A stretch of 64,000 nt of DNA from an uncultured Actinomycetota bacterium (GTDB lineage Bacteria > Actinomycetota > Actinomycetes > Sporichthyales > Sporichthyaceae). Of the stretch, positions 15,412 to 48,319 are shown piece by piece (position 1 is the first letter of the stretch; the number at the start of each line of letters is the position of its first letter). Under the pieces are notes generated by a model, which saw nothing but the letters and a program-made list of their open reading frames with translations, had not been told where the DNA came from and did no database searches. The stretch spans positions 4,622,585 to 4,686,584 of the forward strand of contig OY969798.1 in NCBI GenBank assembly GCA_963703165.1, given 5' to 3'. The position numbers and the translations under genes were made by a program.

Positions 15412-17006
15412 AGGTCGGTGAGATCCGTGTTGCCGGCGCGCAACCGGGAGAGTTGGATGAAGTGCTCCGGGTTGAGGAACAGCTCGTTCATCCACCCGAT
15501 CTCGTCGATCGTGATGCCCTTCTTGATGAGGTAGTCCAGATACTGGAACGCGTCCTTGGCGCCCATGCCGACGTGGTGCGCGCCGAGCATGCGGCGCGAC
15601 TTGTTGTCGTAGATGCACTTCTGGAATCCGGTCAGTTCCGGCCGGGTGTGCGCGTAGAGCATGGTGCCCTCCGACAACGGCAGGCAGATCTCGTCGTTGC
15701 GGATGCCCTTGGGCGGCATCTGAATCACCGTGATGTCGCCGTACTGCTCCCGGGCCTCCTCCTCGGACAGACCTACCCAGGTGACCTCGTACGTGGTGTG
15801 CAGGAAGTCGGGGTACTCCGAGAAGTCGAACTCGATGTCCTCCCCGGCGATGTTGCGGGCCGCGGTGACGCCGCACTTGCGGGCCTTGAACATCTCCATC
15901 GGGGAGCCGATGAGGTCGCCGATCGCATACACGCCCGGGACGTTGGTCTGCATGCGGCCGTTGACCTTCACGAAGCCCTTCTCGTCCACCTCCACACCGA
16001 GGGTGTCGACGTAGATCTGCGAGGCCGGACGTTCGCCGGTGCCGATGAAGACGAACGAGGTCTCGAAGATTTTCTCGGACCCGTCGGCAAGGCGCACCCG
16101 GACACCGGTGACCGCGCCGTTGATGTCAGCTGTGTCGCCGAGGACCTCGAGCGGTTCGCAGCCCTCGACGATGTCGATGCCGCGCAGCTTCATGTTATCC
16201 ACGACGTAGGTCCGCAGGTCTTCGTCGACGTGGTGCATGCTCTGCGTCCGCATCAGCGGGCTGCGGGACAGGATCGTGGTCCGGCAGCCGGCCGCCTGGT
16301 AGAAGGAGCCGTACTCCATCGCCACCTTGGACCCGCCGATGATCACGCAGCTGTCCGGCTCGAAGTCCAGGCCCGGGTCGATCAGCGAGGCGAAGTCGTA
16401 AACCCCCGGCCTGTCGAGGCTCAGGCCCTTGATCTCCGGCGGGACGTAGGTGTGCGCGCCGGTGGCGAGGACGAGGTTGTCCGAGGTGAAGATCCGTCCG
16501 GCGGCCTCGACGCGGAACTTGCCGTCCTCCGGGGGGAGCACCGTGGCCCACGCGTTGAGAATGTACTCCATGTCCAGTTGTTCCTTGGACTGCCAGTTCA
16601 TGAAGGCGTGCGCGTTGTTCCGGCCGTTCTTGAACAGGTTGATCATGTCGACGATCGAGGCCCTGGACTCATCGAACTTGGGGAACCAGAAAGTGTCGGA
16701 GTTCCAGCGCATGTAATCCATCTCGCGCGCAGCCTCGGAGAAGAGATGGTGCGGGACGCAGGCCTGGTGGGGGCATGAGCCACCGAGGAACGGCCACTTC
16801 TCGACGATGAGCTGGCGCAGCTCGCGGGCTTGGGCGAATGCCGAGCCGAAGCGCCCACCGGCCCCACCGCCGACGTAGATGACGTCGTAGTGGGTGCCCT
16901 TCTCCGTGTGCACATTCTCCAGCGGCTCGGTGACCTCACCAACCTCCGCCTGGTGGATGAGGGTCTCCCACTCGGCCATCGTCAGGTGCGTCTCGCGCAG
17001 GTCCAT
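15408..17006 (-). CDS. xecC: NADPH:2-ketopropyl-CoM oxidoreductase/carboxylase (2-KPCC, DSOR family, XecC-like)
   Basis: QLIVEKWPFLGGSCPHQACVPHHLF redox disulfide, MEMFKARK, DFLHTTYEVTWVGLSEEEAR, and a C-terminus FQKCIYDNKSRRMLGAHHVGMGAKDAFQYLDYLIKKGITIDEIGWMNELFLNPEHFIQLSRLRAGNTDL. This C-terminus carries F-x4-H (FLNPEHF) in place of the usual DSOR His/Glu. All of this matches Xanthobacter 2-KPCC as I remember it. The ATG at 17006 is preceded by an AGGAAGGA ribosome-binding site. Confidence 0.75.
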   Translation of the reverse strand: MDLRETHLTMAEWETLIHQAEVGEVTEPLENVHTEKGTHYDVIYVGGGAGGRFGSAFAQARELRQLIVEKWPFLGGSCPHQACVPHHLFSEAAREMDYMRWNSDTFWFPKFDESRASIVDMINLFKNGRNNAHAFMNWQSKEQLDMEYILNAWATVLPPEDGKFRVEAAGRIFTSDNLVLATGAHTYVPPEIKGLSLDRPGVYDFASLIDPGLDFEPDSCVIIGGSKVAMEYGSFYQAAGCRTTILSRSPLMRTQSMHHVDEDLRTYVVDNMKLRGIDIVEGCEPLEVLGDTADINGAVTGVRVRLADGSEKIFETSFVFIGTGERPASQIYVDTLGVEVDEKGFVKVNGRMQTNVPGVYAIGDLIGSPMEMFKARKCGVTAARNIAGEDIEFDFSEYPDFLHTTYEVTWVGLSEEEAREQYGDITVIQMPPKGIRNDEICLPLSEGTMLYAHTRPELTGFQKCIYDNKSRRMLGAHHVGMGAKDAFQYLDYLIKKGITIDEIGWMNELFLNPEHFIQLSRLRAGNTDLTDL

Positions 17007-17017
17007 GGTTGTCCTTC

Positions 17018-18016
17018 CTAGGGCGTGGCAGGCGTCTCGACGACCACCGCTGGGGTGAAGGCGTCGAAATAGATGTTCCGAGGCCGCACGCCGGCGCCGG
17101 TCAACAGCGGCACAGCGGCGGAGATCATGGGGGGCGGACCGCACAGGTACACGTCGTGGCTCAGGGTCGGGGACCAAGCGGCGATCGCGTCGGTCACGAA
17201 ACCGCCGACAACCGGGTGGAACTCGAAGCCGGGAAGTCGATCGCCGATGGCTGCGATCTCCTCGACGAGGTACAGGTCGGCCTCGGTGCGCGCTCCGAAG
17301 AAGAAGGTGATCGGGCGGTCGAACGCTTTGTCGGCGCAGTCACGGAGCAGCGACAGGATCGGCGCGAGACCGGAGCCACCGGCGATCATCAGCACGGGGC
17401 GGTGCGACAGGCGGATCCGTAGCTGACCGTACGGGCCGTGAACTCGGACGGGGTCGCCGGCGGTGGCCGCGCCGAGGAAGCGGGAGAACGCCCCGTCCGG
17501 GTACAGCTTGACGATCAGGTCGACCCGATCGTCCTGAGCCGGCGCGTTCGCCAACGAGAACGTTCGGACCAGGCCCGACGCGGGGACCTCCACGTTGACG
17601 AACTGCCCGGCGACGAAGGGCATCCGTTCGCCGACGATGCTCAGCCGGATGGCGGCGATGTCCGCGGTCAAGTGCTCGATCGAGTCCACCACGGTGTCGT
17701 AGGGCCGTGAGGTGTCGCCGGAGAGAAACTCGCCCTCGGTCAGCCCGGTGGGGTCGACGTCGACGACACAGTCCTCCAGTGGCACGCTCGCGCAGGCGAG
17801 CATCAGATCCTCGGCCCGGTCCTCGCTCGTCAATGCGAACGAGGACCCGTGCTCTTCGACGTCGCCGTCGACCAGTCGCACCTTGCAGGTCCCGCAGCCG
17901 CCGTACTTGCAGCCGTACTTGAGTAGCAGGTTGTTGCGCAGAGCGCCCTCGAGCACGGTTTCGGTGTCCGCGCACTCATACGAGTGCCCGAACGGCTCGA
18001 TGGTGATCTGCGGCAT
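17018..18016 (-). CDS. etnD: alkene monooxygenase reductase component ([2Fe-2S] ferredoxin plus FNR-like FAD/NAD domains; AmoD/EtnD-like)
   Basis: Plant-type ferredoxin cysteines (CKYGGCGTCKV...LACASVP), then RxFS (RTFSLAN) and a GGSGLAP NAD-binding motif. The ATG at 18016 lies 5 nt after the alpha-subunit stop. Confidence 0.8.
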   Translation of the reverse strand: MPQITIEPFGHSYECADTETVLEGALRNNLLLKYGCKYGGCGTCKVRLVDGDVEEHGSSFALTSEDRAEDLMLACASVPLEDCVVDVDPTGLTEGEFLSGDTSRPYDTVVDSIEHLTADIAAIRLSIVGERMPFVAGQFVNVEVPASGLVRTFSLANAPAQDDRVDLIVKLYPDGAFSRFLGAATAGDPVRVHGPYGQLRIRLSHRPVLMIAGGSGLAPILSLLRDCADKAFDRPITFFFGARTEADLYLVEEIAAIGDRLPGFEFHPVVGGFVTDAIAAWSPTLSHDVYLCGPPPMISAAVPLLTGAGVRPRNIYFDAFTPAVVVETPATP

Positions 18017-18021
18017 CGGAC

Positions 18022-19524
18022 TCAGCCGGCCAACGGGTTGCGGATCTCGTACCCGATCGCGCGGATGTCGTCGATCGTCCACATGCGCGGCAGGTCGAGC
18101 ATCGGCTGACCGATCAGGGTGTGCCCGTCGGGGCGGACCCCGCCCATGTCGAGGATGACGTCGGCCAGGTCCCAACCGTGGTAGCGCTCCCAGAACTGCT
18201 TCCGGTGGCGGTAAGCCTCGGGCCAGTTGCTGAAGACCCACTCGCAGCCCTCGCTGCACAACGCGTAGTTCTTCCCGCCCAGGTCGACGATGCGGGCTTC
18301 GTTGCAGTCCAGGCGCGGCATCACGCACGGCATCTGGCAGACCTGGCAGATCGGCGGCAGCCCAGGGAGCTCCTGCAACATCAGCCGGCCTACGGCAGGA
18401 TCGGCGAGGGCGCGGTAGCCCTCCCAGTAGCCCTGGTAGTAACCGGACCACCCGGGATAGTTGTTCTCGAACCACTCGAAGTCCGCCGGACCGGGGGCGT
18501 CCATCCGCCAGAAGTTCAACGGCCAGATCGCCCCGAGCACCTGGGCGATGGTGTGGTGACCCCACGTCACATCGTTGGCCGCGGCGGCCAGGCGGGAGGG
18601 TGGACGGACCCCGAACTCGGAGAGCCGTTCGACGAAGCCGCCGACGAAGTCGTCGACGACCCATTCCTCCCACTGGTTCTTGTAGCTCCACGGCCGGACC
18701 TTCGAGCCGTACTCGGAGGCGAACCCGACGAGCAGGTCAAACAGGCGGTGGCTGTGCCAGAAGTGCCGGTCCAGCGACTTGTTGAGGATCGGGACGTTCT
18801 CCTCCTCTGCCAGCAGCATCATGATCGCGCCGTAGCCATTGGCCATGTGCCGGGCCTCGTCGGACTGGATCGACATCATGACGCTGGCCAGCGCGTTGTC
18901 GCCGTTGGCCACGGCGACCTGCGGTGTCGCCACGAGCAGGATGTTGGTGTACGCGGTTTCCACGACGATGTTGAGCGCGACGATGCAGTCCAGGGGGTCA
19001 CCGGTGTTGAAGTGCTGGAACTCCCCGATGGTGGCCTGGGTCGCGGGGTGCAGGTACATGGAGCGCTGCCCGACGTCCCACCCGGCTGGGTCGGGGGAGT
19101 TGCGCACGTAGTAGTTGCGCAGCGACATCTCCAACTGCGCGTGGCGTACCTCGTCGAGCATCTGGGCGTTATAGCCCTGGCGCATCTCCTGGTTGTCGAT
19201 CGCCGAGATGATCATCCCGCAGCCGGCGACGGCCTGGTACTCCGCGTTGGTGAGGATCGGCAGGACCGGCTTCATGATCTCGTTGAAGCGCGGCTCGGCG
19301 CGGGTTGCCTCACGCATCCGCACGGCGCCGTCGAGAAACGCATGGGTGCGGTCGTCCTTCTCAGCCTCCATCTTCATGTAGTCCCGGATCAGGACGCGGA
19401 ACGGATCCTTGCCCTTCTTCGGCAGTTTGAACTTCGTCTCGAACTTCGGGCGTGACGTGACCGAGGTGAAGTCCCAGTCGTAGGACTTCGTCTTCTCGTG
19501 CAGCGCGCTGAGACTCGATGGCAT
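18022..19524 (-). CDS. etnC: soluble di-iron alkene monooxygenase alpha (hydroxylase large) subunit (AmoC/EtnC-like)
   Basis: The 500-aa protein carries the two di-iron-carboxylate motifs (DEVRHAQLEM; SIQSDEARHMANGY). It is a soluble di-iron monooxygenase (SDIMO) alpha-fold protein. The ATG at 19524 is preceded by AGGACTGAGGAA. Confidence 0.85.
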   Translation of the reverse strand: MPSSLSALHEKTKSYDWDFTSVTSRPKFETKFKLPKKGKDPFRVLIRDYMKMEAEKDDRTHAFLDGAVRMREATRAEPRFNEIMKPVLPILTNAEYQAVAGCGMIISAIDNQEMRQGYNAQMLDEVRHAQLEMSLRNYYVRNSPDPAGWDVGQRSMYLHPATQATIGEFQHFNTGDPLDCIVALNIVVETAYTNILLVATPQVAVANGDNALASVMMSIQSDEARHMANGYGAIMMLLAEEENVPILNKSLDRHFWHSHRLFDLLVGFASEYGSKVRPWSYKNQWEEWVVDDFVGGFVERLSEFGVRPPSRLAAAANDVTWGHHTIAQVLGAIWPLNFWRMDAPGPADFEWFENNYPGWSGYYQGYWEGYRALADPAVGRLMLQELPGLPPICQVCQMPCVMPRLDCNEARIVDLGGKNYALCSEGCEWVFSNWPEAYRHRKQFWERYHGWDLADVILDMGGVRPDGHTLIGQPMLDLPRMWTIDDIRAIGYEIRNPLAG

Positions 19525-19535
19525 CTGTGGGTTCC

Positions 19536-19841
19536 TCAGTCCTTGAACCGGTCGGGTTGGATGTCTGCGTAGATGTCGACCCGGCCGTCGCCCACGACGA
19601 TGCGCCCGTAGTAGCTGGCCATGTTCACCAGGAAGATGCTGGTGTCGATGTCCCGCCCGGCGATGTCGGACAGCTCGGTCATGTCGAAGCTCAGGACGTC
19701 GTCGCACTCGATCTTGTAGAAGCAGTCGCGGAAGTCGATGACCGCGTTGGGCTGACTTTCCGTCACATGCTCGACGGCTGCCTGGGTGTCGGAGGAATTC
19801 ATCAAGGAGATCCCGACGCGGCGCTTGGTGGTGGTGCTCAT
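19536..19841 (-). CDS. etnB: monooxygenase coupling/effector protein (MmoB/DmpM family; AmoB/EtnB-like)
   Basis: The 101-aa protein MSTTTKRRVGISLMNSSDTQAAVEHVTESQPNAVIDFRDCFYKIECDDVLSFDM... Its ATG at 19841 overlaps the beta-subunit stop (ATGA). Confidence 0.7.
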   Translation of the reverse strand: MSTTTKRRVGISLMNSSDTQAAVEHVTESQPNAVIDFRDCFYKIECDDVLSFDMTELSDIAGRDIDTSIFLVNMASYYGRIVVGDGRVDIYADIQPDRFKD

Positions 19842-20875
19842 GCCGACATCCCTGCCTCGTCGAGCGCCTGGCGCTGACGCTCGAGAGAACGGGTCAACGC
19901 TTCTTTCGCGCCCGCCTCGTTGACGCCGGCCGCGGCGAAGGCGGCGAGGAATGCGGTGGCTGCCGCCTCGCAGCGCGGGCCCCAGTCGTCGAGCCAGCCT
20001 CCGATGACCTTGGCGTTGTCGCCGCCGGTGTCCGGGTCCGCACACACCAGGCGAACCAGGGCGGCCACCCCGGTGATGTGCCGGTCGGTGTCCCGGATGG
20101 CTCCGGCGAGCACCGCGGGGGTCGCGCCGTCGCCGGCGTGCGCGGCGCGGTGGCTGAACAACTCGCTCTTGGCCAGACTGCCCAGCAGGGGTTCGAACAC
20201 CAGCGTGGTGATCACCAGGGCCTCGACCCAGTCCTCGCAGGCCACCAGGTGCTCGACGAGTTCTCGGATCGGCACCAGCGCAGGGTCGGACATCCAGGCC
20301 TCGCGCGCACCGGCGTCGGTGAAGGACTCGTCGGACTCGCCGAGATGATCGAGATGGAAGACGATGTCCTGGAGCAGGCGCATCCGGTCCGCGGCCTGGA
20401 ACACCACGGTGAACTGCACGGTGTCCGACATGGCTTGCCGGACGCCGTAGGCCAGGGACAGGAAGAGCCCGTACTCGACGAACGGCCAGGCGGCGTAGAG
20501 CCGACCCAGCACCTCGTCACGCCACGGGCCGGCCGCACTCGTGCCGCCGGGGCGGGTGAGCACGGGCAGGGTCCGTGCGAGCGCCTGTTGGTCCTGATTC
20601 GTGGCGCTCACGAAGGGGCGTTGCCACATGCCCGCCGGGTCGCGGTAGTCCCGCCACATGCTTGTGCGCACCGCGCTGCTGTCGTCGCTCCACGGCGGGG
20701 TGCCGTCGTCGAAGCGCACCGGCCAGTCGATGTGCAGCCACTGCCCGGGATCCGACTGCTGGCCGATCGTGTACGACTCGTACTCACTGGGCTTCCGCCG
20801 CGCCGGGGTGAACCAGGTGAAATTTCGATCGCCGGAGAATTCCTCAGCCGTGTGGCCGGGCACCGTCGCCGTCAT
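19838..20875 (-). CDS. etnA: soluble di-iron alkene monooxygenase beta (hydroxylase small) subunit (AmoA/EtnA-like)
   Basis: The 345-aa SDIMO beta-type protein is first in the operon. The gene order beta, coupling, alpha, reductase is the group-4 alkene monooxygenase arrangement. Confidence 0.75.
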   Translation of the reverse strand: MTATVPGHTAEEFSGDRNFTWFTPARRKPSEYESYTIGQQSDPGQWLHIDWPVRFDDGTPPWSDDSSAVRTSMWRDYRDPAGMWQRPFVSATNQDQQALARTLPVLTRPGGTSAAGPWRDEVLGRLYAAWPFVEYGLFLSLAYGVRQAMSDTVQFTVVFQAADRMRLLQDIVFHLDHLGESDESFTDAGAREAWMSDPALVPIRELVEHLVACEDWVEALVITTLVFEPLLGSLAKSELFSHRAAHAGDGATPAVLAGAIRDTDRHITGVAALVRLVCADPDTGGDNAKVIGGWLDDWGPRCEAAATAFLAAFAAAGVNEAGAKEALTRSLERQRQALDEAGMSA

Positions 20876-21035
20876 GGACCGCCTCCTCGTTGAGGACCTC
20901 CGAGGTCAGTGACGCTAGACACGTGCAGAAGGGCGTTCCTCTACCGATCCGGATGAAGTTTGTAGGGGAGTGTCGATCGGTTCTTACTCCCATCCGGGGT
21001 AGACAGTGCCGGGGTAGGCGTGGCTGGATGACGGG
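20876..21035. promoter_or_regulatory. divergent promoter/operator region between the alkene monooxygenase operon and the GAF-PucR regulator
   Basis: The 160-bp spacer contains the inverted repeat GGGGAGTgtCGATCGgttcttACTCCC around a CGATCG core. Confidence 0.3.
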
Positions 21036-23166
21036 GTGACGCTGCTGGCTGCGCGGGTCGGAACGACCTGGCCCACGCTCATCGAGACCCTGCTCGGGTC
21101 GAGAGCTGCTGCCGTCTCGGCGCCGAGGGTCGTCACCGAGACCGTGGCCGAACTGGCCGAGGCGCAAACCGTGGGCATTGTCGAGTGGGTGCGTGACGTG
21201 CCGAGCGTCGTGCACGAGGTCGGGCCGCCGTTGACCTTGACCGTCCGCCCGCCGGCGGGCCGGGCGGATGTCGCCGGCGTTCCCGCGGTGGTCGTCCAGG
21301 TCGATGACCACCGGGACCTGGTGGTGTTGCGCCCGGCAGGCGCCCCGGCGTTCACCGCCGAGGAGGCTGCCGCCATCGAGGCGGTCAGCACACTGCTCGG
21401 GCACTCCGCGGCGTTCGGTCGCAGGGAAGCCGCGGAGACGTTGAACCGGCTTGCGCGGGAGATCGTCGGCACCCTCGACCTCGACCGGGTGCTGCTCTCG
21501 ATCGCCAACTCCGCCGCCCGGTTGCTGGCCTCCGAGGTCACCGGCGTGCTGCTCGTGCACGGTCCGCCCGATCGCCCGGAACTGCGCATGCGCTGCACCG
21601 TCGGGCACCACTCGCCGGAGACTGCCCGGCTACGCATCCCCGCCGGTCGAGGTATGGCCGGCAAGGTGCTGGAGACCGGACGGCCGGCCCGGGTGGACAA
21701 CTACGCGACGGCGGAGTCGATCACCAAGGACTACCTGCCGATCGCGATCGAGGAGGGCACGCACTCCGGCCTCGCCGTGCCCGTGCTCGACGCCGGCGGG
21801 GCGATCATCGGGGTCCTGGCCGCCTGGCGGATGCGCCCCTCGGTCTACACCGACGAGGACGAGCAGGTTCTCGTCTCCTTGGCCGGTCTCGCGTCCATCG
21901 GTCTGGTCAACGCGCGGGCCTACAGCGACCAGCAACGGGTGACCGCCGAACTGGAGGCCGCGCGCACGGAACTGGCCGACCGGCTGGCCATCTCCGACGA
22001 GGCGGTCTCGATCCACCGTCGGCTGACCGCGATCGCGGCCGAGGGGCAGGACCTGTCGCGGTTGGCCGTCGCCGTGCAGGAGATCGTCGACGGCCCCGTG
22101 GTGATTGTGCCCAGCAGCGACCGCTCGGGCGCGCGCTGGCCGCCCGGGGCCGACGTCCCGCGCGAGCAGGACAGCCGACCCCTGCGCGTCGTGGCAGCCG
22201 AGAGCGGAAGGCTCCGGGCCCGTCTGGGTCCGGGTACCCATCGAGGCCGCGGGAGTGCAGCACGGCGTCCTGCACGCGCGGCTGCCCGCCCGGCCGCGGC
22301 CGCGGGACGTCGTCACCCTCGAACAGTCCGCCGTGATCTGCGCCCTGTTGCTCGGCCACGAGGACGCCGTTGCCGCAGCCTCGGCCCGGTTGCGTTCGGA
22401 GTTCGTCTGGGACCTGCTGGAGGGCCGCGGCGACGCGGATCAGGACAACGCGCTGCGGGCGGTCGCACTCGGCCTGCGCCTGGCGTTCCCGGCTCGGCTG
22501 CTCCTGCTGCGTGGCCGAGGGTTGCGGGAACTGGGCCGGAGCGAGGGATGGACTGCCGAGCAGGCCGAACGCAACCGCATCTGGTGGGGTGGGCGGGTCG
22601 CCTCCGCCGTCGAGGAGTTGACCGGGCACCTGGTCCCCGTGGCGCACCGTGACGAGCACGTGATCGCCATCCTGCCCGCGGCGGATGCCACGGCGGCCCA
22701 CGCGGCGGCGGCGGCTGCCCGATGTCCGTTCGGCGACGTCGTGGTGCAGGGCGGGCTGAGCCGCGAGGTGCCGGGACCTGCCGGACTGCCGCAGGCGCTG
22801 CACGAGGCGCGCGTCGCACTGGCCGCGGTGCCCGCCGGTGCCGCGGTCATGCGTTTCGACGACCTGGGGGTGCTCCAGTTCCTGGTCGCGCCCTCGGGCG
22901 GGGAGGGCCTGCACGCCTTCGCGGCCGGCGTGCTGGGGGACCTGATCGCCTACGACCGCAAGCACGGCACGGAGCTGATCGCGACGCTGGACAGCTGGTT
23001 CGAGAACAGCTGCAGTGTCGCGGGCACGGCGCGGGCGATGCGGGTGCACACGAAGACGTTGGCGTATCGGCTCCGCCGGATTCAGGAGGTCTCGGGCCTG
23101 GATCTGACCGATCGTCAGCGCCGCCTGGACGTCGAACTGGCGTTGCGGGTTCTCGGCCCCACGTGA
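21036..23166 (+). CDS. GAF-domain PucR/CdaR-family transcriptional regulator (frame switch near 22215-22235)
   Basis: The N-terminal frame (21036..22652) has a GAF domain (LDLDRVLLSIANSAARLL...AIIGVLAAWRMRPSVYTDEDEQVLVSLAGLASIGLVNARAY). The C-terminal frame (22105..23166) has a PucR C-terminal HTH (MRVHTKTLAYRLRRIQEVSGLDL). The two overlap out of frame, which implies a 1-nt indel. The gene is divergent from etnA. Confidence 0.6.
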
Positions 23167-23241
23167 ACTGTCGGCGCATGGCGCCCCGACGACACGCGAA
23201 CGGCAGTTTTCTTTCGCGATCGTGGGGGTAGGAGCGGCCGC

Positions 23242-23796
23242 GTGCTGCTGCTGAGACTGCCCGGCGTGTCCTGCCCGGACGACGACACCGCGATGTTGCT
23301 GGACTGCGTGCTCGAGCAGGACCTTGCCCCGGGGGCGAAGGTTCTGGATCTCGGGACGGATCCCGGCCTGATGGCCGGCCTGCTGGAGCAGGCCGGGGCG
23401 GAGGACGTGTCCACCATCGACCTGGGGCGTCGGCTCGGGCGGGCCCGGCTGCGCAGCCGGCGGATGCGCGACCGCTTCGACCTCGTCGTGGCCAACGTCC
23501 CCTTCCTCGCCTGCGGCGTCGAGGGCCGCGGTCGCCTGGACCGCATCTGCCGCGCCGCGCCCCGTCTTCTGGCCGAGGGTGGCGCCCTGTGGCTCGTGCA
23601 ATCCGAACTGTGCGACCCGCAGCTCACGCTCGGCCACCTGGCCGGCTCCGGGCTGCAGGCGCGGATCGTCGAGCGGGGCGAGGTCGCCTTCGGGCCCGCC
23701 ATGTGGTCCCGTGCGGCCGCGTTGCGCGCGCAGGGACGCATCGGCTCCGACCAGTGCACCGAGGACATCGTGGTGATCCGTGCCACTCGGTCCTGA
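23242..23796 (+). CDS. Mtq2/HemK-like class I methyltransferase paralog with degenerate SAM and substrate motifs (likely inactive)
   Basis: It shares its N-terminus (VLLLRLPGV...DDT.LL) and overall fold with the gene at 26093. Motif I reads DLGTDPG (versus DIGTGTG) and motif IV reads NVPF (versus NPPY). It is about 30 aa shorter. Confidence 0.5.
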   Translation: MLLLRLPGVSCPDDDTAMLLDCVLEQDLAPGAKVLDLGTDPGLMAGLLEQAGAEDVSTIDLGRRLGRARLRSRRMRDRFDLVVANVPFLACGVEGRGRLDRICRAAPRLLAEGGALWLVQSELCDPQLTLGHLAGSGLQARIVERGEVAFGPAMWSRAAALRAQGRIGSDQCTEDIVVIRATRS

Positions 23797-24259
23797 CTGG
23801 CTGACGTAGCGTCAGTTCACATCTCGGCAAACTACTTGCCGGTAAAGCGAGCTGGGTCACACCGTGGGGTGGGTTACCCGTCGGTTGTGACGCGAGGCAT
23901 CCCGCTCGGCTCTTGGGGGGGCGCTGCGCCGATGCCAGCATGGGCGCATGACTTGGACCCTCGAACCCATTGCCGACGACCGGATGCGCCTGATGACCCG
24001 CGCGCTCGCGGTTCAGAAGTCTCGCCCCGACGTGTTGATCGACGGACGTACCTCTCTGCACCCGGCCTTCGACGACTGGACCTCGCACCAGGACCCGGCA
24101 GGTCCGGGCCTGCTCTGGGACAGCTCCGCGCTGGTCACCGCGGACTGAGCGCCACGGGTGGCCCCTGGTTTATCCACAGGGTGAATGGGGAGTCACCGGC
24201 CAGACGACGAACTCGAATCACCGGGGACCGTCGCTCGACCCGCATCAAAGGCCGGGCAC

Positions 24260-25039
24260 ATGACCCTCGCACCTGAAGTATTTGACGCGACGCTCTCCGA
24301 TGAGGACCTCTTCAAGGCCCTCCGTCAGGCGGACACGGCGGAACGGGAACGCATCCAGACCCTGCTGGTGGATCGATACAGCGGCCTGGTCCGGGCCATC
24401 GCGGCGCGTTACGCGAACCCGGGCGTCGAGGTGGAGGAGCTCCGCCAGGTCGGCTATGTCGGGCTGGTGCTCGCCATCCAACGCTTCGACGTCGAACGCG
24501 GCATCGACTTCACCGCCTTCGCACGGCCGACCATCACCGGTGAGATCCGGCGCTGGTTCCGGGACAAGCGCCGGTGGGTGCGGCTCCCTCGGCGTGTGCA
24601 GGAGACCAAGGCAGGCCTGACCGTGGCCAACGAGGTGCTCACCCACCAACTCGGCCGGTCCCCAACAGTCTCGGAGCTCGCGGCTCACCTGCACGTCGGC
24701 GAGGAACTCGTGCTCGAGGCAATCACGATCGACGACGCCTTCGTGGCGCTCTCGCTCGATGCGCCGGGGGGCGGGGACGACTCTGACGACTGGACGCTGG
24801 GGGACACCCTCGGAGCCCGCGACGAACGACTGGACCTGATGCTCGACGTCGCTGTCCTCGCGCCGCTGATCGCGGACCTTCCCGAGCGGGAGCGGTCCAT
24901 CCTGCAGATGCGTTTCGGGGACGAACTCACCCAGGCAGAGATCGGCCGCCGGTTGGGGTACTCGCAGATGCACATCTCGCGAATCCTCAACCAGATCTTC
25001 GAGACCCTGCGGGCAGGTCTGGCTGAAGCGGAGTCCTGA
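24260..25039 (+). CDS. group 3 sigma-70 factor (SigF/SigB-like alternative sigma factor)
   Basis: Region 2 (LVDRYSGLVRAIAARY...VGYVGLVLAIQRFDVERGIDFTAFARPTITGEIRRWFRD), region 3, and region 4 HTH (ERERSILQMRFGDELTQAEIGRRLGYSQMHISRIL). Confidence 0.8.
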   Translation: MTLAPEVFDATLSDEDLFKALRQADTAERERIQTLLVDRYSGLVRAIAARYANPGVEVEELRQVGYVGLVLAIQRFDVERGIDFTAFARPTITGEIRRWFRDKRRWVRLPRRVQETKAGLTVANEVLTHQLGRSPTVSELAAHLHVGEELVLEAITIDDAFVALSLDAPGGGDDSDDWTLGDTLGARDERLDLMLDVAVLAPLIADLPERERSILQMRFGDELTQAEIGRRLGYSQMHISRILNQIFETLRAGLAEAES

Positions 25040-26030
25040 GGGAGGAGTGGCCGGCTTCCCAGGAGGTCAGCAGATGAGCGTCGAGCCGGTCGTCCAAGGC
25101 TGTGGCGGCCGCCATGCCGAACAACACGTCCCCCGCCACGTCTGGCTCGGCGCCCATCAGTTCCTCGATCGCCTCGCGCATCACCCGTTCATGCACCGCG
25201 TCCGCGACCGCGTGTTCGGCGTAGAACCGTTCGGCCTCCGGACCGCCTTCGAGCCGGCGGACAACCTCGACCATTCGCTGCGAGCCCAGCGGCGAGGTCA
25301 ATTCGACCACCGCCAACTGGCCCAGCAGCGCACCGCGCAGGGCGCGGTGCAGACCGCACAGGGACATGAAGTTGACGACGGCCAGCATGGGCGCGGGTAC
25401 GACATCGACGTACGCCCCGTACTCGGGAGACAAATCGAATGCCCGCATCAGATCGGCGAACAACCTGCTGTGCATGCGATCCGGGCGCCCACCGCCGTAC
25501 TCGTCGAACTCGACGGCAGCCACCAACGCCTTCGCGGCGCCCTCCAATCGCGGCAGCACCCAGGCCTGCGGATCCGCCTCCTTCAGGTGATACAGGGAGC
25601 GGTGGACCAACACCTCGCGCAGTTGGTCCCGGTCGGGCCGGCGCAGCAGATGCGCTCCCACGCCGGTGGCGGAAGGGGGCCGACGCAGGTCGTCGAACTT
25701 GTCCCGCACGGCAGTGGCGGCGTCGCCACCGTCGGTGTGAACCTCGCCCCGGAGGGCTTGAAGGAAGCGATGCTCCAATTGCTTCCGCAAGGCTAGGACG
25801 CCGAGGTCCCATTCGCGTTCGGCATCGACCGTGACGAAACCTCGGTAGTGCAGCTCGTAGCAGACGTACAACGCGAGCTGAAGGTCCTCGGAGAACGGTG
25901 CGGCGTCACCCAGCCCAGCCGGCACCATGGCGACGTCGTGCCGCAGCGCGCCGATCAGTGTGCTCGATACAGGTCCGCGTGGTTGCGGCAGGGTGGGCGC
26001 CGCCACCGCGATCACAGGTGCCATGGTCAT
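24987..26030 (-). CDS. heme-oxygenase-like di-iron (HDO) redox enzyme family protein
   Basis: The 347-aa protein has paired E/H ligand motifs in helices (YVCYELHYRGF; QLEHRF; VEFDEYGGGRPDRMHSRLF; FYAEHAVADAVHERV). This matches the PF14518-type iron-containing redox enzyme pattern. Confidence 0.55.
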   Translation of the reverse strand: MTMAPVIAVAAPTLPQPRGPVSSTLIGALRHDVAMVPAGLGDAAPFSEDLQLALYVCYELHYRGFVTVDAEREWDLGVLALRKQLEHRFLQALRGEVHTDGGDAATAVRDKFDDLRRPPSATGVGAHLLRRPDRDQLREVLVHRSLYHLKEADPQAWVLPRLEGAAKALVAAVEFDEYGGGRPDRMHSRLFADLMRAFDLSPEYGAYVDVVPAPMLAVVNFMSLCGLHRALRGALLGQLAVVELTSPLGSQRMVEVVRRLEGGPEAERFYAEHAVADAVHERVMREAIEELMGAEPDVAGDVLFGMAAATALDDRLDAHLLTSWEAGHSSLRTPLQPDLPAGSRRSG

Positions 26031-26092
26031 GAGCGACCCCTACCCGGGAGAACCGAATACATCACGGTGGCCGGTCGGGGTAAGCGTTCCTA

Positions 26093-26743
26093 GTGCTACT
26101 ACTACGACTTCCCGGCGTCTACGAACCAGAGGCCGACACCCATCTGCTCATCGACTCCGTCCTTGCCGAGGGCATCCCGCCGCACGCCCATGCGCTCGAC
26201 ATCGGAACCGGCACCGGCCGGATCGCTCTTGCACTGAAGGCGTCGGGCGCCGCCCGCGTGCAAGCCGTCGACATCTCGCGTCGGGCCGTGCTCTCAGCAC
26301 GCGTCAACGCATTCCTGCACGGGCTTCCGTTGCGCGTTCGCCGCGGCGATGTGCTGGAGCGTGTAACCGATCGCTTCGACCTGATCGTGGCCAATCCGCC
26401 CTACGTTCCGAGCGACGACAAACTCCGTGTCCGCGACCGGACGAGGACGTGGCACGGGGGAGCGGACGGGCGGGCGATCCTGGACCGGGTCTGCCGTGAC
26501 GCGCCGGCGTTGCTTGCGCCGGGCGGTGTGCTGTGGATCGTGCACTCCGCGTTGTGCGGACCACAGACCACGCTCGACCAGTTGGAATCTGCCGGTCTGC
26601 GCGCGCGGATCGAGCGTAAGGAACGCATCCCGTTCGGACCGGTGCTGCGCTCGCACCTGGAGTGGCTGCGCAAGGAGGGATTGCTCGGACCGGAGGACGC
26701 GTCCGAGGAACTCGTGGTGATCCGGGCGGCTCGGGATGGCTGA
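26093..26743 (+). CDS. Mtq2/HemK-like (TIGR00537-type) class I SAM methyltransferase with intact DIGTGTG and NPPY motifs
   Basis: It starts at GTG 26093 (VLLLRLPGVYEPEADTHLL). Motif I is DIGTGTGRIA. Motif IV is ANPPYVP, the N5-glutamine/N6-adenine methyltransferase signature. Confidence 0.65.
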   Translation: MLLLRLPGVYEPEADTHLLIDSVLAEGIPPHAHALDIGTGTGRIALALKASGAARVQAVDISRRAVLSARVNAFLHGLPLRVRRGDVLERVTDRFDLIVANPPYVPSDDKLRVRDRTRTWHGGADGRAILDRVCRDAPALLAPGGVLWIVHSALCGPQTTLDQLESAGLRARIERKERIPFGPVLRSHLEWLRKEGLLGPEDASEELVVIRAARDG

Positions 26744-26951
26744 GCCCGGGGGGCGTGTGCGCGTGCGGGTCGACCCGGAGGGGCCGACATACGTCGACGG
26801 ACCGGTCGAGGTGACGACGGACGGTGGGGAGCCGTTGCTCGTCGATCGGTTCCGCGTCGCGATCTGCGCCTGCCGCCGATCCGCGCAATACCCGTTGTGC
26901 GACGGCAGTCACCAGGCCCTCGCTGTGGAACGAACGGAGGACTCTCGTTGA
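26736..26951 (+). CDS. CDGSH iron-sulfur domain protein (mitoNEET-like)
   Basis: The 71-aa protein has ICACRRSAQYPLCDGSH (C-x-C-x..-CDGSH). Its ATG overlaps the methyltransferase stop (ATGGCTGA). Confidence 0.6.
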   Translation: MAEPGGRVRVRVDPEGPTYVDGPVEVTTDGGEPLLVDRFRVAICACRRSAQYPLCDGSHQALAVERTEDSR

Positions 26952-27015
26952 CGTGCCTCGCTGATGAACTTGAGGGCACGACCCGCTGGAGCGATAAGTA
27001 CCGGGGCGCCGGGTA

Positions 27016-27750
27016 GTGGACTCTGTTGTGAGCGATGAAACAGTGGCGCAGGCGCTGGCCAGGCAGTTCTACGACCTGAACGATCATCTGCTGGCCGGCG
27101 GCAGCCGCGAGAGGGCGATGCAGCGCTTGGTCGAACTGGCAGTGGCGGCGGTGCCCGGGTGCGCCTGGGCAGGGGTGACGACCTATACGCCGTCCAAGGG
27201 GGCCAAGGGTCTGGCCAGCAGCGACCCGATCAGTGTCACGGTCGACGAGATTCAGCACGAACTGGATGAGGGCCCGTGCGTGACCGCCGCGGTGATCGAC
27301 AGCTTTGCCTCGGTGCAGGTGGAGGACATCGACAAGGAATCCCGCTGGCCGCGGTTCTGCGCCCTGGTCGCCGAACGGACGCCCGTGCGCAGCATCATGT
27401 CGTTCCACCTGACCGGAGACCAGGCTCCGGCCCGGTCTGCGCTGAATCTCTACGGACCGGAACCGCAAGTTTTCACCGGCGAGTCCTTCGACGTGGGCGC
27501 ACTGTTCGCCACACACGCCGGGGCGCTGATGCTGCACTCGTACAGCGCGCATCAGGTGACCAACCTGAACGCGGCCCTGACCAGCAGTCGAGAGATCGGG
27601 ATGGCCATCGGCATTCTGATGGCGATGCACAGAATCACCTCCGAAGAGGCCTTCGAGATGCTCAGCGTCGCCAGTCAGCATCTGAACCGAAAATTGCGCG
27701 ACGTGGCCGACGACGTCGCCCGGACGGGGACGCTTCCCGGAAGATGTTGA
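27016..27750 (+). CDS. GAF-ANTAR RNA-binding antitermination regulator
   Basis: A GAF domain is followed by an ANTAR helix bundle (SREIGMAIGILMAMHRITSEEAFEMLSVASQHLNRKLRDVADDV). Confidence 0.75.
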   Translation: MDSVVSDETVAQALARQFYDLNDHLLAGGSRERAMQRLVELAVAAVPGCAWAGVTTYTPSKGAKGLASSDPISVTVDEIQHELDEGPCVTAAVIDSFASVQVEDIDKESRWPRFCALVAERTPVRSIMSFHLTGDQAPARSALNLYGPEPQVFTGESFDVGALFATHAGALMLHSYSAHQVTNLNAALTSSREIGMAIGILMAMHRITSEEAFEMLSVASQHLNRKLRDVADDVARTGTLPGRC

Positions 27751-27773: not shown

Positions 27774-29219
27774 TCAGAAGAGCCTGTTGATGTCCGCGAA
27801 GGGCTCCTTCAGCACCATGCCGGTACTGGTCAACTGGAACTCGCGTACGTGCTTGTCGTGGTCGGAGCCGCGCATCTTCAGCATCTGGATGCCGCGCTTC
27901 ATCTCCCCGCCCACCGGCACGTAATGCAGCAGCGTGATCGCGTCGCTGATCGTCGAGACGTGCAGTTCCCCGGCGCCGTCGGCGCTGAGGAAGTCCGTGA
28001 CGCTCGAGGTCACCATGCCGGCCATGGACTGCAACTTGATGTAGTACGTCAGCCCCAGCACATACTCCCGAAAGCTTTTCACCGTCGAGATCCGCTGCAG
28101 GGCGGTGAGGCTGTCGATGGCAACCCGATCCGGCGCGAACGTGTCGATGGTCGACTTCATCCGCTGCAGGTGATCCTCGAGTGAGGCTGCCTCAGGCGTC
28201 TCGGCAACGATGCACAGGCGCCCCGAGTCCTCCATCGCTTCCAGATCCAAGCCCCAGGCGGCGGCATTGCGAAGCAGTTGCGGGCGGCTCTCCTCGAAGG
28301 AATGCAGCAGGGCGCGCTGTCCGGCGCGCACCCCACCGGCGGCGAAGTGCGTGGCGAGGAAGGACTTGCCGGTGCCCGTGGGACCGGCGACCAGCCACAA
28401 CGACTTCTCGTACAGCCCGCCGTGCAGCATGTCGTCGAGCGCGGGCACCCCGCAGCTGATGCGCGTGGTGGAGGTCGTGTAACCCATGGAACTCACGGCC
28501 AACGGCACGATCGCGAGTCCGTCGTTGAGCAGAGTGAACAGGTGCTCGCCCCGCATGTGCGAGCAGCCGCGCATCTTCAGGATCTCGATGCTGCGGCGTC
28601 GCTTCTCGTGCTCCAAGGAGTTGCGCAGGATCGCGACGTTGTCCGCGACGAACTCCTCGAAGCCCAGCCGTCCGATGGGGCCGTAGTCATCCGACCGTTC
28701 GGTGGTGATCACCGACGTGACGCCCGCTTCTTCCAGCGTCTCGGCCAGGCGGAACAAGGTGCGCCGCGCAGGGGTGACGTCGTCGAACTGGGAGACCAGG
28801 GAGCCGATTGAGTCGATCGCGACGCGACGCGCGCCGACGCTCTCGATGGCGTGGGTGATCCGGCTCAGCAGCGGGGTCAGGTCGTAGTCGTTCCCGGAGA
28901 ACACTGTGTCGACCTGGCGGGGCGCGCCGTCGACGAAGAGCCACTGGTTGCGCTCCTCCCAACCGGGGATGTCCCAGCCGAAGGAGCGCATGTTGCGGCG
29001 GATGCCTTCGGGACGTTCCTCGAAGGTGACGAAGACGCCGGGCTCGTCGTCGGCGATCCCACCGGCCAGGAACTGGCACAACAGAACGGTCTTGCCGCTG
29101 CCTGCGGTGCCGGCGACCAGCGTCAGCCGGTTGCGCGGCAGGCCACCGTAGGTGATCAGATCCAGCCCGGGGATGCCGGCGTCGATGCGATCCAGCTCAG
29201 TGGTACCAGCTGACCTCAC
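27774..29219 (-). CDS. kaiC: KaiC-family double RecA-fold ATPase/autokinase
   Basis: Two RecA/KaiC domains, each with a Walker A (GTAGSGKT; GPTGTGKS) and Walker B motif. Length is 481 aa. The GTG at 29219 lies 1 nt after the upstream PP2C-KaiB stop. Confidence 0.85.
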   Translation of the reverse strand: MRSAGTTELDRIDAGIPGLDLITYGGLPRNRLTLVAGTAGSGKTVLLCQFLAGGIADDEPGVFVTFEERPEGIRRNMRSFGWDIPGWEERNQWLFVDGAPRQVDTVFSGNDYDLTPLLSRITHAIESVGARRVAIDSIGSLVSQFDDVTPARRTLFRLAETLEEAGVTSVITTERSDDYGPIGRLGFEEFVADNVAILRNSLEHEKRRRSIEILKMRGCSHMRGEHLFTLLNDGLAIVPLAVSSMGYTTSTTRISCGVPALDDMLHGGLYEKSLWLVAGPTGTGKSFLATHFAAGGVRAGQRALLHSFEESRPQLLRNAAAWGLDLEAMEDSGRLCIVAETPEAASLEDHLQRMKSTIDTFAPDRVAIDSLTALQRISTVKSFREYVLGLTYYIKLQSMAGMVTSSVTDFLSADGAGELHVSTISDAITLLHYVPVGGEMKRGIQMLKMRGSDHDKHVREFQLTSTGMVLKEPFADINRLF

Positions 29220-29220
29220 G

Positions 29221-30228
29221 TCAGATCCCTTCCTCGGTCGCCGGAGTCACCGGAAGTTGCAGAGCCCGGGCCAGAACCAGCGGGGAATCGAACCACCCGA
29301 TCACGCGGACCGGGGGTTCCGGCACGGCACGCAGGACCGTGGGTGCGGCGAGTACCCCGGCCTCCTCGGTCATCGCGAACTTGGATGTCACGTCGATGAC
29401 CTCGACCGACAGCTCGATGTCCCGCACGACGGTCTCCAGTTGGGAGAGCGTCTCCAGCAGCGATCGGGTCCGCATATCGCGCGGATCCACGTAGGCCCGC
29501 AACAGGACGCGGCCGGTAGGCGGAGGGGGCAGGTCGATCGAGGTGCGGTTGGCCTCGACAGCCATCTGTACCGACACCACGGTGGCGTCGTCCCTCGGTT
29601 GGCCGAGGGCGTCGGTCGCGCGGCGGGCGAACTCCGAGGCCCACGCGGCCGCGCCGCCGATCCCGTTGCAGGCCTCGACCAGCGAGGCGATCGCCTCGGC
29701 GGTGTCCACGCCGGGTCGGTCCACGAGTCCGTCGGTGTAGAGAAACATCGCGGTGTCCGGAGCCAGGTCGTGGGCGAACTCCTTGCGCGAGTCGCCGGGT
29801 GCCCCGAGCGGTGGCCCGGCGACGCCGTCGAACAGTTCGACCCGAATGTTGTTGACGAAGATGAGGGGCGGATGGCCTGCGTTCGCGACCCGGACCACGC
29901 GGGCGGCCGGGTCGAGCACCGCGCAGATCAATGTGGCGACGTGGTCCCCGCCGCGAGCCTCCATGGCCGCGTCGAGCTCGGCGAGGACGGCAGAAGGTTC
30001 CTGGGTCTTGCGCAAGGTTCGGCGGACGCGGAAGCGCAGATCCTCCGCGGCGGACGCGGCGTCGGGGCCGATTCCGGTCGCGTCCCCGATGACGACGGCG
30101 ACCCGACCATCGTGCAGATCCACGACCTCGTGCAGGTCGCCGCCGGAGTCGGTAGGCGTCGGGCGCCAACACACCTCGATGACCACGCTCTGCATGTCCA
30201 TCGTGGTGGTGCGCCAGCGTCTGGGCAT
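29221..30228 (-). CDS. PP2C (SpoIIE/RsbU-type) serine phosphatase fused to a C-terminal KaiB-like domain
   Basis: PP2C motifs GDATGIG and DGLVD. The C-terminal 95 aa (VLLRAYVDPRDMRTRSLLETLSQLETVVRDIELSVEVIDVTSKFAMTEEAGVLAAPTVLRAVPEPPVRVIGWFDS) align with cyanobacterial KaiB as I remember it (LYVAG...VIDV...LAEE..ILATPTL..VLP.PVRRIIGDLSD). The ATG at 30228 has a GGAG ribosome-binding site. Confidence 0.7.
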   Translation of the reverse strand: MPRRWRTTTMDMQSVVIEVCWRPTPTDSGGDLHEVVDLHDGRVAVVIGDATGIGPDAASAAEDLRFRVRRTLRKTQEPSAVLAELDAAMEARGGDHVATLICAVLDPAARVVRVANAGHPPLIFVNNIRVELFDGVAGPPLGAPGDSRKEFAHDLAPDTAMFLYTDGLVDRPGVDTAEAIASLVEACNGIGGAAAWASEFARRATDALGQPRDDATVVSVQMAVEANRTSIDLPPPPTGRVLLRAYVDPRDMRTRSLLETLSQLETVVRDIELSVEVIDVTSKFAMTEEAGVLAAPTVLRAVPEPPVRVIGWFDSPLVLARALQLPVTPATEEGI

Positions 30229-30887
30229 CTCAGGTCTCCATGCGGGCGTCAGCCGCGCACGGTGGACGCGTAGTCCGGACCTGCCGCACCACGTCACTCC
30301 TCCCGGGTCATCACCGATCCGCGGCATTGTGGCTCACTCGGCGCGCTGCCCGCTGCGGCGTACGGCACACGGAAGAGCTGTGTTGCGTATGTCTCCCCAG
30401 GTCAGGGAGAGGATCAGAAGACCGGGCCGACGTCCGCGGCGACGATGTCGTCCAAGGCGGGTTCGGCCACCGCGGCGGCGGCCGGGCGAGGCAGGGCCAG
30501 CGTCAGGCCCGAGGCGGCCAGTCCGGCTAGCAGGGTGCGACGGCTCGGCGCGATCACACCGCTAGCTTACACCGTAAGTCTGTGTGGTGAGGATCGTTCC
30601 GGATCGCTCAGAACGGCAGGCGGCGACCGCTCGGCGAACGACGATCCACCTCGAATTGCGGGCGCGGGCGTGCGGGTCGGCGGATCTGGATCTGGTTGGA
30701 CATCGAAGCTCCCCGTCCTCGGCATCCTGACCTCCTCCGGTGCGGCCCGACCCTGGTGCCGGGAGTCAAATACTTCCCAGTAGGCCTGGGGATCAATCCG
30801 CTTGTGAGTAGGTCGTTTCTTGCATGAAGTACACGGGGTGCTTGTTTCGGCTGAAGTCACCGACTGTGAACTCTTATGACCACGCAA

Positions 30888-43834: not shown

Positions 43835-47458
<3,624 letters not shown>

Positions 47459-47469
47459 GTGGCGTCCTG

Positions 47470-48272: not shown

Positions 48273-48319
48273 CTTCTGCGGCGGGCGATGGCGTGGCTAC
48301 TCCTCCGTAGGATTCGGGG

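Follow-up and report, generated by a model that had tools for sequence, protein, structure and literature searches.

Heme-oxygenase-like di-iron enzymes (HDOs) are the subject of an active field, and those that have been characterised come from rare natural-product pathways. Among the described systems closest to the locus presented here are the SznE/SznF pair of streptozotocin formation, in which an N-methyltransferase is likewise paired with an HDO N-oxygenase, and HrmI/BelK and RohS, stand-alone, nitro-group-making N-oxygenases that belong to natural-product clusters (hormaomycin and azomycin). The present locus occupies positions 23242–26951 of a 64,000-nucleotide stretch of DNA (hereafter, the window; contig OY969798.1, positions 4,622,585 to 4,686,584 of the forward strand, assembly GCA_963703165.1) from an uncultured member of the Sporichthyaceae, Actinomycetota. 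It carries an HDO gene back to back with a gene for a HemK2/Mtq2-type methyltransferase (MT2), which overlaps a gene for a CDGSH [2Fe-2S] protein, and, upstream of these, genes for a SigB/SigF-type sigma factor and for a degenerate methyltransferase paralogue (MT1). The functional unit is HDO together with MT2-CDGSH, a trio that differs from SznE/SznF in that the CDGSH protein is always present, the genes stand alone without a biosynthetic cluster, and hundreds of species possess them rather than a rare producer.

A profile search with the HDO in a collection of species-representative genomes returned at least 597 loci with an HDO relative, and the best 80 of these, with Streptomyces, Pseudonocardia, Nocardiopsis, Kineococcus, Actinomadura, Actinoallomurus, Saccharopolyspora, Amycolatopsis, Nocardia, and Mycobacterium among their genera, provide the locus counts given throughout. 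HDO, one MT2-like gene, and CDGSH stand side by side in 72 of them; four further loci are cut by contig ends and are consistent with the trio, three hold HDO and CDGSH without the methyltransferase, and two hold HDO alone. The gene order varies from HDO-MT-CDGSH (39 loci) to MT-CDGSH-HDO (22) and HDO convergent with MT-CDGSH (11), and a fourth, divergent arrangement is found in the window and its closest relatives. CDGSH invariably follows the methyltransferase in the first three arrangements, the end of the methyltransferase gene overlaps the start of CDGSH by 4–29 nt in 70 of the 72 loci, and only one methyltransferase adjoins HDO in every locus. Because the linkage survives rearrangement into several gene orders, it is strong evidence for a shared function.

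In the window, MT2 (26093–26743, + strand, 216 aa) overlaps CDGSH (26736–26951, + strand, 71 aa) by 8 bp (ATGGCTGA) and diverges from HDO (24987–26030, − strand, 347 aa) across a spacer of 62 bp, and the 3' ends of HDO and the sigma gene (24257–25039, + strand) overlap by 53 bp. An earlier note, made from the letters of this stretch, had described this divergence and overlap as well as a translational coupling of MT2 to CDGSH, and these features hold, the coupling being further upheld by the overlap kept in related loci; its coordinates and domain calls for the five genes likewise agree with an open reading frame (ORF) check and with Pfam and NCBIfam (TIGR) profile scores read against curated cutoffs, on which all domain calls here are based. 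The note had also treated the five genes as one island and had named conservation of the neighbourhood among relatives as the check. The link of HDO, MT2, and CDGSH is kept across genera; the five-gene arrangement is not, since MT1 and sigma are not general neighbours, and neither a sigma gene nor a second methyltransferase was found as a general companion of the trio in the 80 loci.

All-against-all clustering of the ORFs within ±7–8 kb of these loci yielded no further gene family common across genera and no accompanying biosynthetic genes; the other flank clusters considered as trio members (e.g., an FMN-dependent dehydrogenase and a small secreted protein) were ruled out as Streptomyces synteny. 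Rosetta-stone fusions of HDO, MT, and CDGSH were not seen among the top 120 HDO matches, the top 120 MT2 matches, or the top 150 CDGSH matches, the last of these inspected from a full HMMER scan of 1.84 billion representatives; an apparent MT-CDGSH read-through in locus L020 proved to be an artefact of a different methyltransferase gene. CDGSH stays with HDO in four genomes that lack the methyltransferase (L013, L037, L069, and L089), and no complete locus with MT and HDO but without CDGSH was found among the loci examined. In L089, a metagenome-assembled genome of the Sporichthyaceae (8988–10280), the methyltransferase has been lost, the sigma gene is directly followed by CDGSH, which keeps a GGGTAG 9 nt before its start, and HDO is convergent with CDGSH.

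That these genes are neighbours by accident, with MT2 a housekeeping release-factor or rRNA methylase, HDO and CDGSH unrelated to it, and the GGGTA motifs discussed below coincidental, is scarcely credible. Annotation pipelines do label MT2 homologues as "release factor glutamine methyltransferase" or "HemK2/MTQ2 family", which would suit such a view, whereas adjacency in 72 of 80 genomes, over many genera and in three orders, and a roughly 100-fold enrichment of GGGTA at a fixed distance from the start codon do not. Nor were MT2 orthologues seen beside prfA or other housekeeping genes in any of the 80 loci, so that the conserved housekeeping context raised as a counter-explanation in the earlier note finds no example there. 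The components all come from known families; their combination, its breadth, and its regulatory signature appear undescribed, as that note had supposed for the combination, in that no published description of the trio was found in the literature searched, which covers few subscription-journal papers. Similarly, no mention of it was found in a 2026 HDO review and in two CDGSH surveys (PMC3174974, PMC5859297).

The HDO scores 174.7 bits on PF14518 (threshold 28.9), and its predicted metal ligands E177, H187, E243, H273, D277, and H280, together with E151, are invariant in 24 orthologues. In the profile alignment, the ligand residues, which fit a set of 3 His and 3–4 carboxylates on the core helices, fall on the ligand positions in the metal-binding helices of SznF and E151 on the extra carboxylate. 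The AlphaFold 2 (AF2) model is made up entirely of helices, with a predicted local distance difference test score (pLDDT) of 90.8, and its top matches in the PDB are SznF, HrmI, and RohS (template-modelling (TM) scores 0.66–0.78; 17–21% identity), followed by FlcD, CADD, and PqqC; profile E-values against HrmI and RohS range from 1e-12 to 4e-11. Judged by profile and model, the protein is a heme-oxygenase-like di-metal enzyme that, among proteins of solved structure, stands nearest to the N-oxygenases SznF, HrmI, and RohS. The central domain of SznF, its top structural match, aligns with it over all six ligands and E151; however, the identity is 19–21%, the SznF cupin domain has no counterpart in the window HDO, and the window methyltransferase, being of the Mtq2/NPPY type, is presumably unrelated to SznE. 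HrmI/BelK and RohS, in turn, are single-domain HDOs of similar size, but they share 17–19% identity with the window protein and have no methyltransferase or CDGSH partner. RohS was assayed in vitro with phenazine methosulfate (PMS) and NADH, and the paper names no native electron donor (PMC13133933).

MT2 scores 121.2 bits on TIGR00537 (HemK2/MTQ2; cutoff 87) and carries the motifs DIGTGTG (motif I, GxGxG) and NPPY (motif IV). Across 74 orthologues, the motif I GTG.G, the acidic AVD, NPPYVP, and an Mtq2-type WDaG.DGR loop are kept at 70–90% or more, and the best PDB relative is N6AMT1/HemK2 (E = 6e-15), several chains of which were deposited with Trm112/TRMT112. By its motifs, MT2 is an intact HemK2/Mtq2-type methyltransferase that is predicted to be active. 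Mtq2-type NPPY enzymes methylate planar nitrogens, either amide or amine, and bacterial release factors are canonically methylated by PrmC; the gene context of MT2, always with HDO and CDGSH, argues for a substrate other than the GGQ glutamine of release factors.

The CDGSH family includes the human disease proteins CISD1-3. The window member scores 53.3 bits on PF09360 (threshold 29.5), has the ligands C44, C46, C55, and H59 in the motif C44-x-C46-x8-C55-D-G-S-H59, and aligns over residues 13–63 with residues 13–63 of RsCISD (3tbm; E = 1.1e-7); its sequence marks it as a type 4 CISD and a predicted [2Fe-2S] binder, and most trio orthologues read CDTSH instead of CDGSH. Type 4 is described as the predominant actinobacterial CDGSH type in the RsCISD paper (Lin et al. 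2011, PMC3174974), and RsCISD (PDB 3TBM) is, like the window protein, a single domain of about 70 aa with N-terminal beta-strands, C-x-C-x8-C-x3-H, and a lid proline. The paper concerns structure and distribution, and a term search turned up neither gene neighbours nor operons nor methyltransferases in it; the conserved association with HDO and MT gives this protein type a new context. Term searches of that paper and of PMC5859297 likewise found no gene-context or functional assignment for bacterial type 4 CDGSH proteins. Related CDGSH domains occur in fusions with FNR-type reductases, Fer4_19, and Fer2+Rieske modules, all electron-transfer contexts, and because of these fusions, and because CDGSH stays with HDO where the methyltransferase is missing, a role for CDGSH as an electron donor is proposed.

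The reading preferred here, to which we give an even chance, is that of a conserved three-gene module, standing beside a sigma factor that probably transcribes it, which combines N-methylation with N-oxygenation and in which the CDGSH protein serves as electron donor. Under stress, a SigB/F-type sigma factor, here likely the adjacent one, would switch on HDO and MT2-CDGSH; MT2 would N-methylate a substrate, HDO would oxygenate this substrate with O2, in all likelihood on a nitrogen, and the di-iron site would receive its electrons back from the [2Fe-2S] centre of CDGSH. As a first guess, the substrate may be a small, polar amine or an amino acid.

Several unrelated genomes have amine oxidase genes near the trio. 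Flavin amine oxidase genes stand beside it in L083 (6366–7958), L059 (7642–9156), and L061 (12216–13718), and a copper amine oxidase gene in L081 (10763–12667); moreover, DAO-Rieske fusion genes lie near it in six loci, being placed between HDO and sigma in L082 (9004–10506) and directly beside HDO in L081. Taken together, these genes give a weak hint of amine chemistry or an amine substrate. The DAO-Rieske gene, a neighbour of HDO in L081, L082, and L083, was considered as a core member and ruled out, as it is absent from the window, where the convergent sigma and HDO genes probably came to overlap by 53 bp (24987–25039) when it was lost.

The trio might alternatively modify a macromolecule, a reading that we regard as rather unlikely. 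MT2 would then be an Mtq2-like N-methyltransferase of protein (Gln/Lys) or RNA, CDGSH its obligate partner in the manner of Trm112, possibly making the activity redox-dependent, and HDO would hydroxylate or oxidatively demethylate the same target in stress. The likeness to the described Mtq2/HemK2 (N6AMT1, KMT9)-Trm112 complexes lies in the fact that MT2 passes the HemK2/MTQ2 model, has GxGxG, NPPY, and WxGGxxGR, and keeps the loop NPPYVP...WxxGxDGR; its best solved relatives include Trm112/TRMT112 complexes, a small metal-binding protein is co-produced in both cases, and the invariant, overlapping MT-CDGSH order suggests stoichiometric co-production. The lack of biosynthetic genes around the trio in the 80 loci also fits a macromolecular target. 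However, the partner in the known complexes is a zinc-knuckle protein whereas CDGSH binds a predicted [2Fe-2S] cluster and has no sequence relation to Trm112, the MT2 system is bacterial, and MT1 fails the model. Persistence of CDGSH with HDO in the four genomes devoid of the methyltransferase, together with the lack of any complete MT and HDO locus without CDGSH, likewise speaks against CDGSH as a partner of the methyltransferase, the closest HDO relatives all act on small molecules, and no candidate protein substrate is encoded nearby. A Pfam scan of the window genes at 21–30 kb turned up no Trm112-like domain.

Control of the module can be compared with the SigB/SigF regulons of Mycobacterium smegmatis and Streptomyces coelicolor, for which closely related promoters are described. 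In M. smegmatis, SigF has the consensus GTTT-N14-19-GGGTA, some of its sites lying 9–10 nt from start codons (PMC4694148), and nine S. coelicolor SigB homologues recognise −10 elements of the form GGGnA, with an invariant GGG and an A at position 5 (PMC8346170). In the window, a candidate MT1 promoter, GTTT-N16-GGGTAG (23206–23231, + strand), ends 10 nt before the GTG start and contains the only GTTT-N14-17-GGGTA match in the 64 kb (23206–23230; expected 0.11). The 62-bp spacer between HDO and MT2 holds two back-to-back GGGTA elements, GGGTAG for HDO (26040–26045, − strand) and GGGTAA for MT2 (26078–26083, + strand), each 9 nt from its own start codon. The HDO element reads GTGATG-N14-GGGTAG, which agrees in hexamers and spacing with the experimentally mapped S. 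coelicolor promoter SCO7446p (PMC8346170, Table 2). The full GTTT-N14-19-GGGTA consensus stands before MT1, while HDO, MT2, and a GAF-ANTAR gene downstream meet the −10 element only; GGGTA-N10-12-ATG/GTG opens a real ORF at five sites in the window, four of which belong to MT1, HDO, MT2, and GAF-ANTAR, consecutive at this locus.

Related loci carry the same signature. GGGTAG precedes HDO in L081, L082, L088, and L089 (and in L083, a Sporichthya polymorpha assembly, only if the start is re-assigned), and GGGTA(C/T)-N9-10-ATG precedes it in 36 of the 80 loci, mostly Streptomyces. Before the methyltransferase, GGGTA lies 14–19 nt from the start in 43 of 74 loci, with 10 relaxed matches in addition, where about 0.5% would be expected; in the 10 loci that begin with MT and have the strict motif, GNTT occurs at N13-17 upstream in all 10 and GTTT in five, against 2.3% and 0.27% in controls. 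MT1 homologues in L082, L085, and L086 have GGGTA about 10 nt before their starts (L087 only if the start is re-assigned), and a GTTT/GGTT −35 element is visible before MT1 in the window, L082, L085, and L086. In the Streptomyces order HDO-MT-CDGSH, a second GGGTAC stands before MT, inside the end of the HDO gene. Streptomyces loci L015–L079 also share a CCCATAYWTCCTGA-like sequence at the HDO 3' end or HDO-MT junction, about 10–25 nt upstream of GGGTAC, which could be a regulatory site or be kept for coding reasons, as it spans the C-terminus and stop codon of HDO.

The trio units and MT1 usually match, in their sequence, the SigB/SigF promoter motif, and the short distance from GGGTA to the start codons suggests leaderless or near-leaderless mRNAs. 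A Shine-Dalgarno variant was considered as the meaning of GGGTA and rejected as the main reading: the T-A is invariant, position 6 is C/T, and GNTT stands upstream, all of which suits a promoter better than a match to the anti-Shine-Dalgarno sequence. A scan of 23100–27100 found no sigma-70-type promoters and no intrinsic terminators. The promoter signature ahead of the trio and MT1 is a new observation; a term search of the two regulon papers (PMC4694148, PMC8346170) found no methyltransferase or CDGSH member matching the trio.

The sigma factor itself (24257–25039, 260 aa) is of the SigB/SigF/SigG family (group 3), with 242.4 bits on TIGR02980 SigB/F/G (cutoff 234.35) and regions 2, 3, and 4 present (Sigma70_r2, r3, and r4). 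Its start is most likely the ATG at 24257 rather than position 24185, because the former aligns with the start of the L082 orthologue and matches the gene called on a read assembly. Orthologues adjoin the trio in five Sporichthyaceae genomes (the window, L082, L083, L088, and L089), the window protein being 54–75% identical to the other four and the five 54–89% identical among themselves. The window has orf66 and then sigma, convergent with HDO, and L082 has the same order with DAO-Rieske in between; sigma is two genes away from the trio in L083, and L088 reads sigma, MT, CDGSH. Upstream of sigma, GTTT-N15-GGGGAG (24168–24192, + strand), conserved in L082, is a candidate promoter whose sequence suggests autoregulation; together with the MT1 promoter, it makes up the only two GTTT-N13-17-GGGNA matches in the window. 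The small ORF orf66 (23948–24148, + strand; 66 aa), with a coding-like GC content at third codon positions (GC3) of 0.84–0.85, has a 66-aa counterpart of 64% identity in the corresponding place of L082, has no Pfam match, and was found only in L082 among the loci compared.

The surroundings of the trio in several relatives are rich in stress and signalling genes. In L088 and L089, they include CsbD, Hsp20, alpha-amylase-family (possibly trehalose-related) enzymes, glucose-6-phosphate dehydrogenase, and a mechanosensitive channel, that is, general-stress genes, and in L081 CDGSH is followed by a STAS gene, with a DosS/DosR/Usp-like set also present. In the window, a KaiC homologue (565 bits on PRK09302) adjoins a PP2C/SpoIIE phosphatase fused to a KaiB-like domain (27774–30327, − strand, for the pair), the phosphatase lying 4 kb from sigma. 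A PP2C-KaiB gene and a KaiC fragment occur near the trio in L082, and PP2C-KaiB-like matches in L013 and L052. The pair may provide a KaiC-controlled input to a partner-switching pathway; nothing relevant to a link of KaiC, KaiB, PP2C, and anti-sigma factors was found in the literature searched. The comparison with the mycobacterial and streptomycete regulons extends to promoter architecture (PMC4694148, PMC8346170) and to a sigma factor within TIGR02980, whereas the window sigma has no adjoining RsbW/UsfX-type anti-sigma gene and instead has orf66 and the KaiC / PP2C-KaiB pair as neighbours.

MT1 (23242–23796, + strand, 184 aa; a weak MTS match) stands apart from the trio. The earlier note had described it as a paralogue of MT2 with DLGTDPG and NVPF in place of DIGTGTG and NPPY and about 30 residues missing, in the pattern of a pseudo-enzyme, and the comparison agrees: the two proteins share 43% identity, two deletions account for 31 gap positions, and MT1 scores 30.3 bits on TIGR00537, below the cutoff of 87. 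Its statement that the first 15 or so codons are almost exactly alike in DNA was too strong, as 32 of 45 bases (71%) agree, or 21 of 27 in the first nine codons, by hand count; what is shared is the N-terminal peptide MLLLRLPGV, with mostly synonymous DNA differences. MT1 belongs to a family of 11 proteins, 55–71% identical to the window MT1 depending on the alignment, all of which have both deletions and N(V/A)PF instead of NPPY, while the central motif-I glycine is lost in 10 (P0125 keeps GTGRG). Because the members share deletions, degenerate motifs, and C-terminal motifs of their own (FGPAMWSRAAALR and DQCTE), the family is maintained rather than decaying. The AF2 model (pLDDT 83) is a trimmed Rossmann-like fold without beta3 and helix C, best matched in the PDB by KMT9/N6AMT1 (TM 0.63). 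MT1 is closest to the trio methyltransferases of the Sporichthyaceae (46–52% identity), its sequence fits a lineage-specific duplicate of the trio methyltransferase, and, by motifs and model, it is probably not an S-adenosylmethionine-dependent enzyme.

The setting of MT1 also separates it from the trio. The earlier note saw the two methyltransferases as bracketing a single unit, which the comparison contradicts, since MT1 travels with PucR and not with sigma or HDO. It lies directly downstream of a PucR-type regulator (GAF-GGDEF_2-HTH_30) in the window (21036–23166, + strand), L082, and L087, and in other, unrelated contexts in L085 and L086. The regulator diverges from a soluble di-iron monooxygenase locus (about 15400–20900, − strand) with Phenol_Hydrox genes at 18022–19707 and 19838–20875 and a pyridine-nucleotide-disulfide oxidoreductase at 15408–17177; the layout of Phenol_Hydrox (with MmoB in L087), divergent PucR, and MT1 recurs in L082 and L087. 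The window PucR gene is split by a +1 frameshift near 22184–22208, where a tblastn alignment with the 715–717 aa orthologues of L082 and L087 switches frame, and the flanks on both sides are 83–86% identical to L082; the split gene is either a pseudogene or a sequencing error. MT1 might act as a non-catalytic binder or decoy behind the PucR regulator, under the same promoter type, a suggestion that is weakly supported. METTL14, the pseudo-methyltransferase partner of METTL3, offers no more than an analogy: MT1 likewise keeps the fold, has degenerate motifs I and IV, and forms a conserved family, but in genomes that have it MT1 is mostly not encoded beside MT2.

The five genes had also been imagined as a single module that senses redox state or oxygen, with MT1, the Fe-S protein, and the di-iron protein receiving a signal and thereby governing how active the SigF-like sigma factor is, and this is improbable. 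Adjacency of sigma to the trio in five Sporichthyaceae genomes, conservation of the MT1 family despite its degeneration, and the density of signalling genes nearby (GAF-PucR, GAF-ANTAR, KaiC, and PP2C-KaiB in the window; STAS, DosS/DosR-like, and Usp in L081) would all be in keeping with it. Outside this one bacterial family, however, the trio occurs without sigma or a second methyltransferase, MT1 follows PucR or stands in the unrelated contexts of L085 and L086, and none of the proteins resembles a known anti-sigma factor or antagonist in Pfam or NCBIfam. The genes also carry the promoter type read by the sigma factor's own class, which marks them as outputs: because SigB/F-type promoters stand in front of MT1, HDO, and MT2-CDGSH, these are taken as candidate sigma targets. 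The link to sigma made in the earlier note consequently stands for the Sporichthyaceae, and the proposed direction, with the module feeding sigma, is less likely; as read from the sequence, sigma most likely drives the module.

A wider form of the preferred model can be offered only tentatively: across Actinomycetota, the trio would be a leaderless general-stress effector under SigB/F control, with CDGSH as the dedicated donor of an HDO N-oxygenase, and would, with the Mtq2-like methyltransferase, make an N-methylated, N-oxygenated metabolite or macromolecule mark. Several points weigh against the preferred three-gene model. The constant MT-CDGSH coupling equally fits CDGSH as a partner of the methyltransferase (like Trm112 for Mtq2), and the identity of HDO to characterised N-oxygenases is only about 17–21%. 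Other HDOs carry out C-C cleavage, desaturation, and further reactions. With respect to control, only two of the 80 loci have a sigma gene close to the trio outside the Sporichthyaceae (L037 and L049), and Pfam found no HATPase_c anti-sigma or STAS gene at 21–36 kb of the window, to which the gene scan was extended, although such genes may lie elsewhere in the genome. Actinomycetes have many SigB/F paralogues, and one other than the adjacent sigma may be in use. As for the motifs, the internal MT promoter of Streptomyces has HDO coding sequence, without GNTT, in its −35 region, and the G-rich GGGTA(G)GAG may partly serve as a Shine-Dalgarno sequence, MT1 having AGGAG 7 nt before its GTG.

Downstream of CDGSH, the GAF-ANTAR regulator (27011–27750, + strand; Pfam ANTAR and GAF_2) has a GGGTAG that overlaps its first GTG (27016), and an in-frame GTG at 27028, which may be the true start, gives a spacing like that of MT1, HDO, and MT2 (27011–27031); the gene is possibly a fourth target of the same promoter type, and ANTAR homologues lie near the trio in only three of the 80 loci. 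In base composition, GC3 is 0.78–0.84 in sigma, HDO, MT2, and CDGSH as against the higher 0.88–0.91 in MT1, PucR, and KaiC, and total GC is 0.66–0.68 over 24–28 kb as against about 0.70 for the whole window. Farther away, positions 43835–53352 hold cobalamin genes (CobN, a CbiC-TP_methylase fusion, and CbiJ/CobK) and a NIR_SIR ferredoxin-like ORF, unrelated to the trio.

The constant company of a [2Fe-2S] protein gene and a stand-alone HDO gene points to a native electron donor. If the wider form of the model is true, a function would be defined for bacterial CDGSH proteins, and a native redox partner for HDOs, for the first time; for type 4 CDGSH proteins, the trio context offers a function that can be tested. 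A bacterial Mtq2-type methyltransferase with a role other than release-factor methylation would, moreover, correct the widespread annotation "release factor glutamine methyltransferase", and the MT1 family provides a small, clean example of a bacterial pseudo-methyltransferase. In genera ranging from Streptomyces to Pseudonocardia and Nocardia, the conserved promoter signature assigns the trio to the SigB/SigF stress regulon, which is directly testable in model strains, and the module would accordingly be a conserved member of the SigB/F-type stress regulon of actinobacteria.

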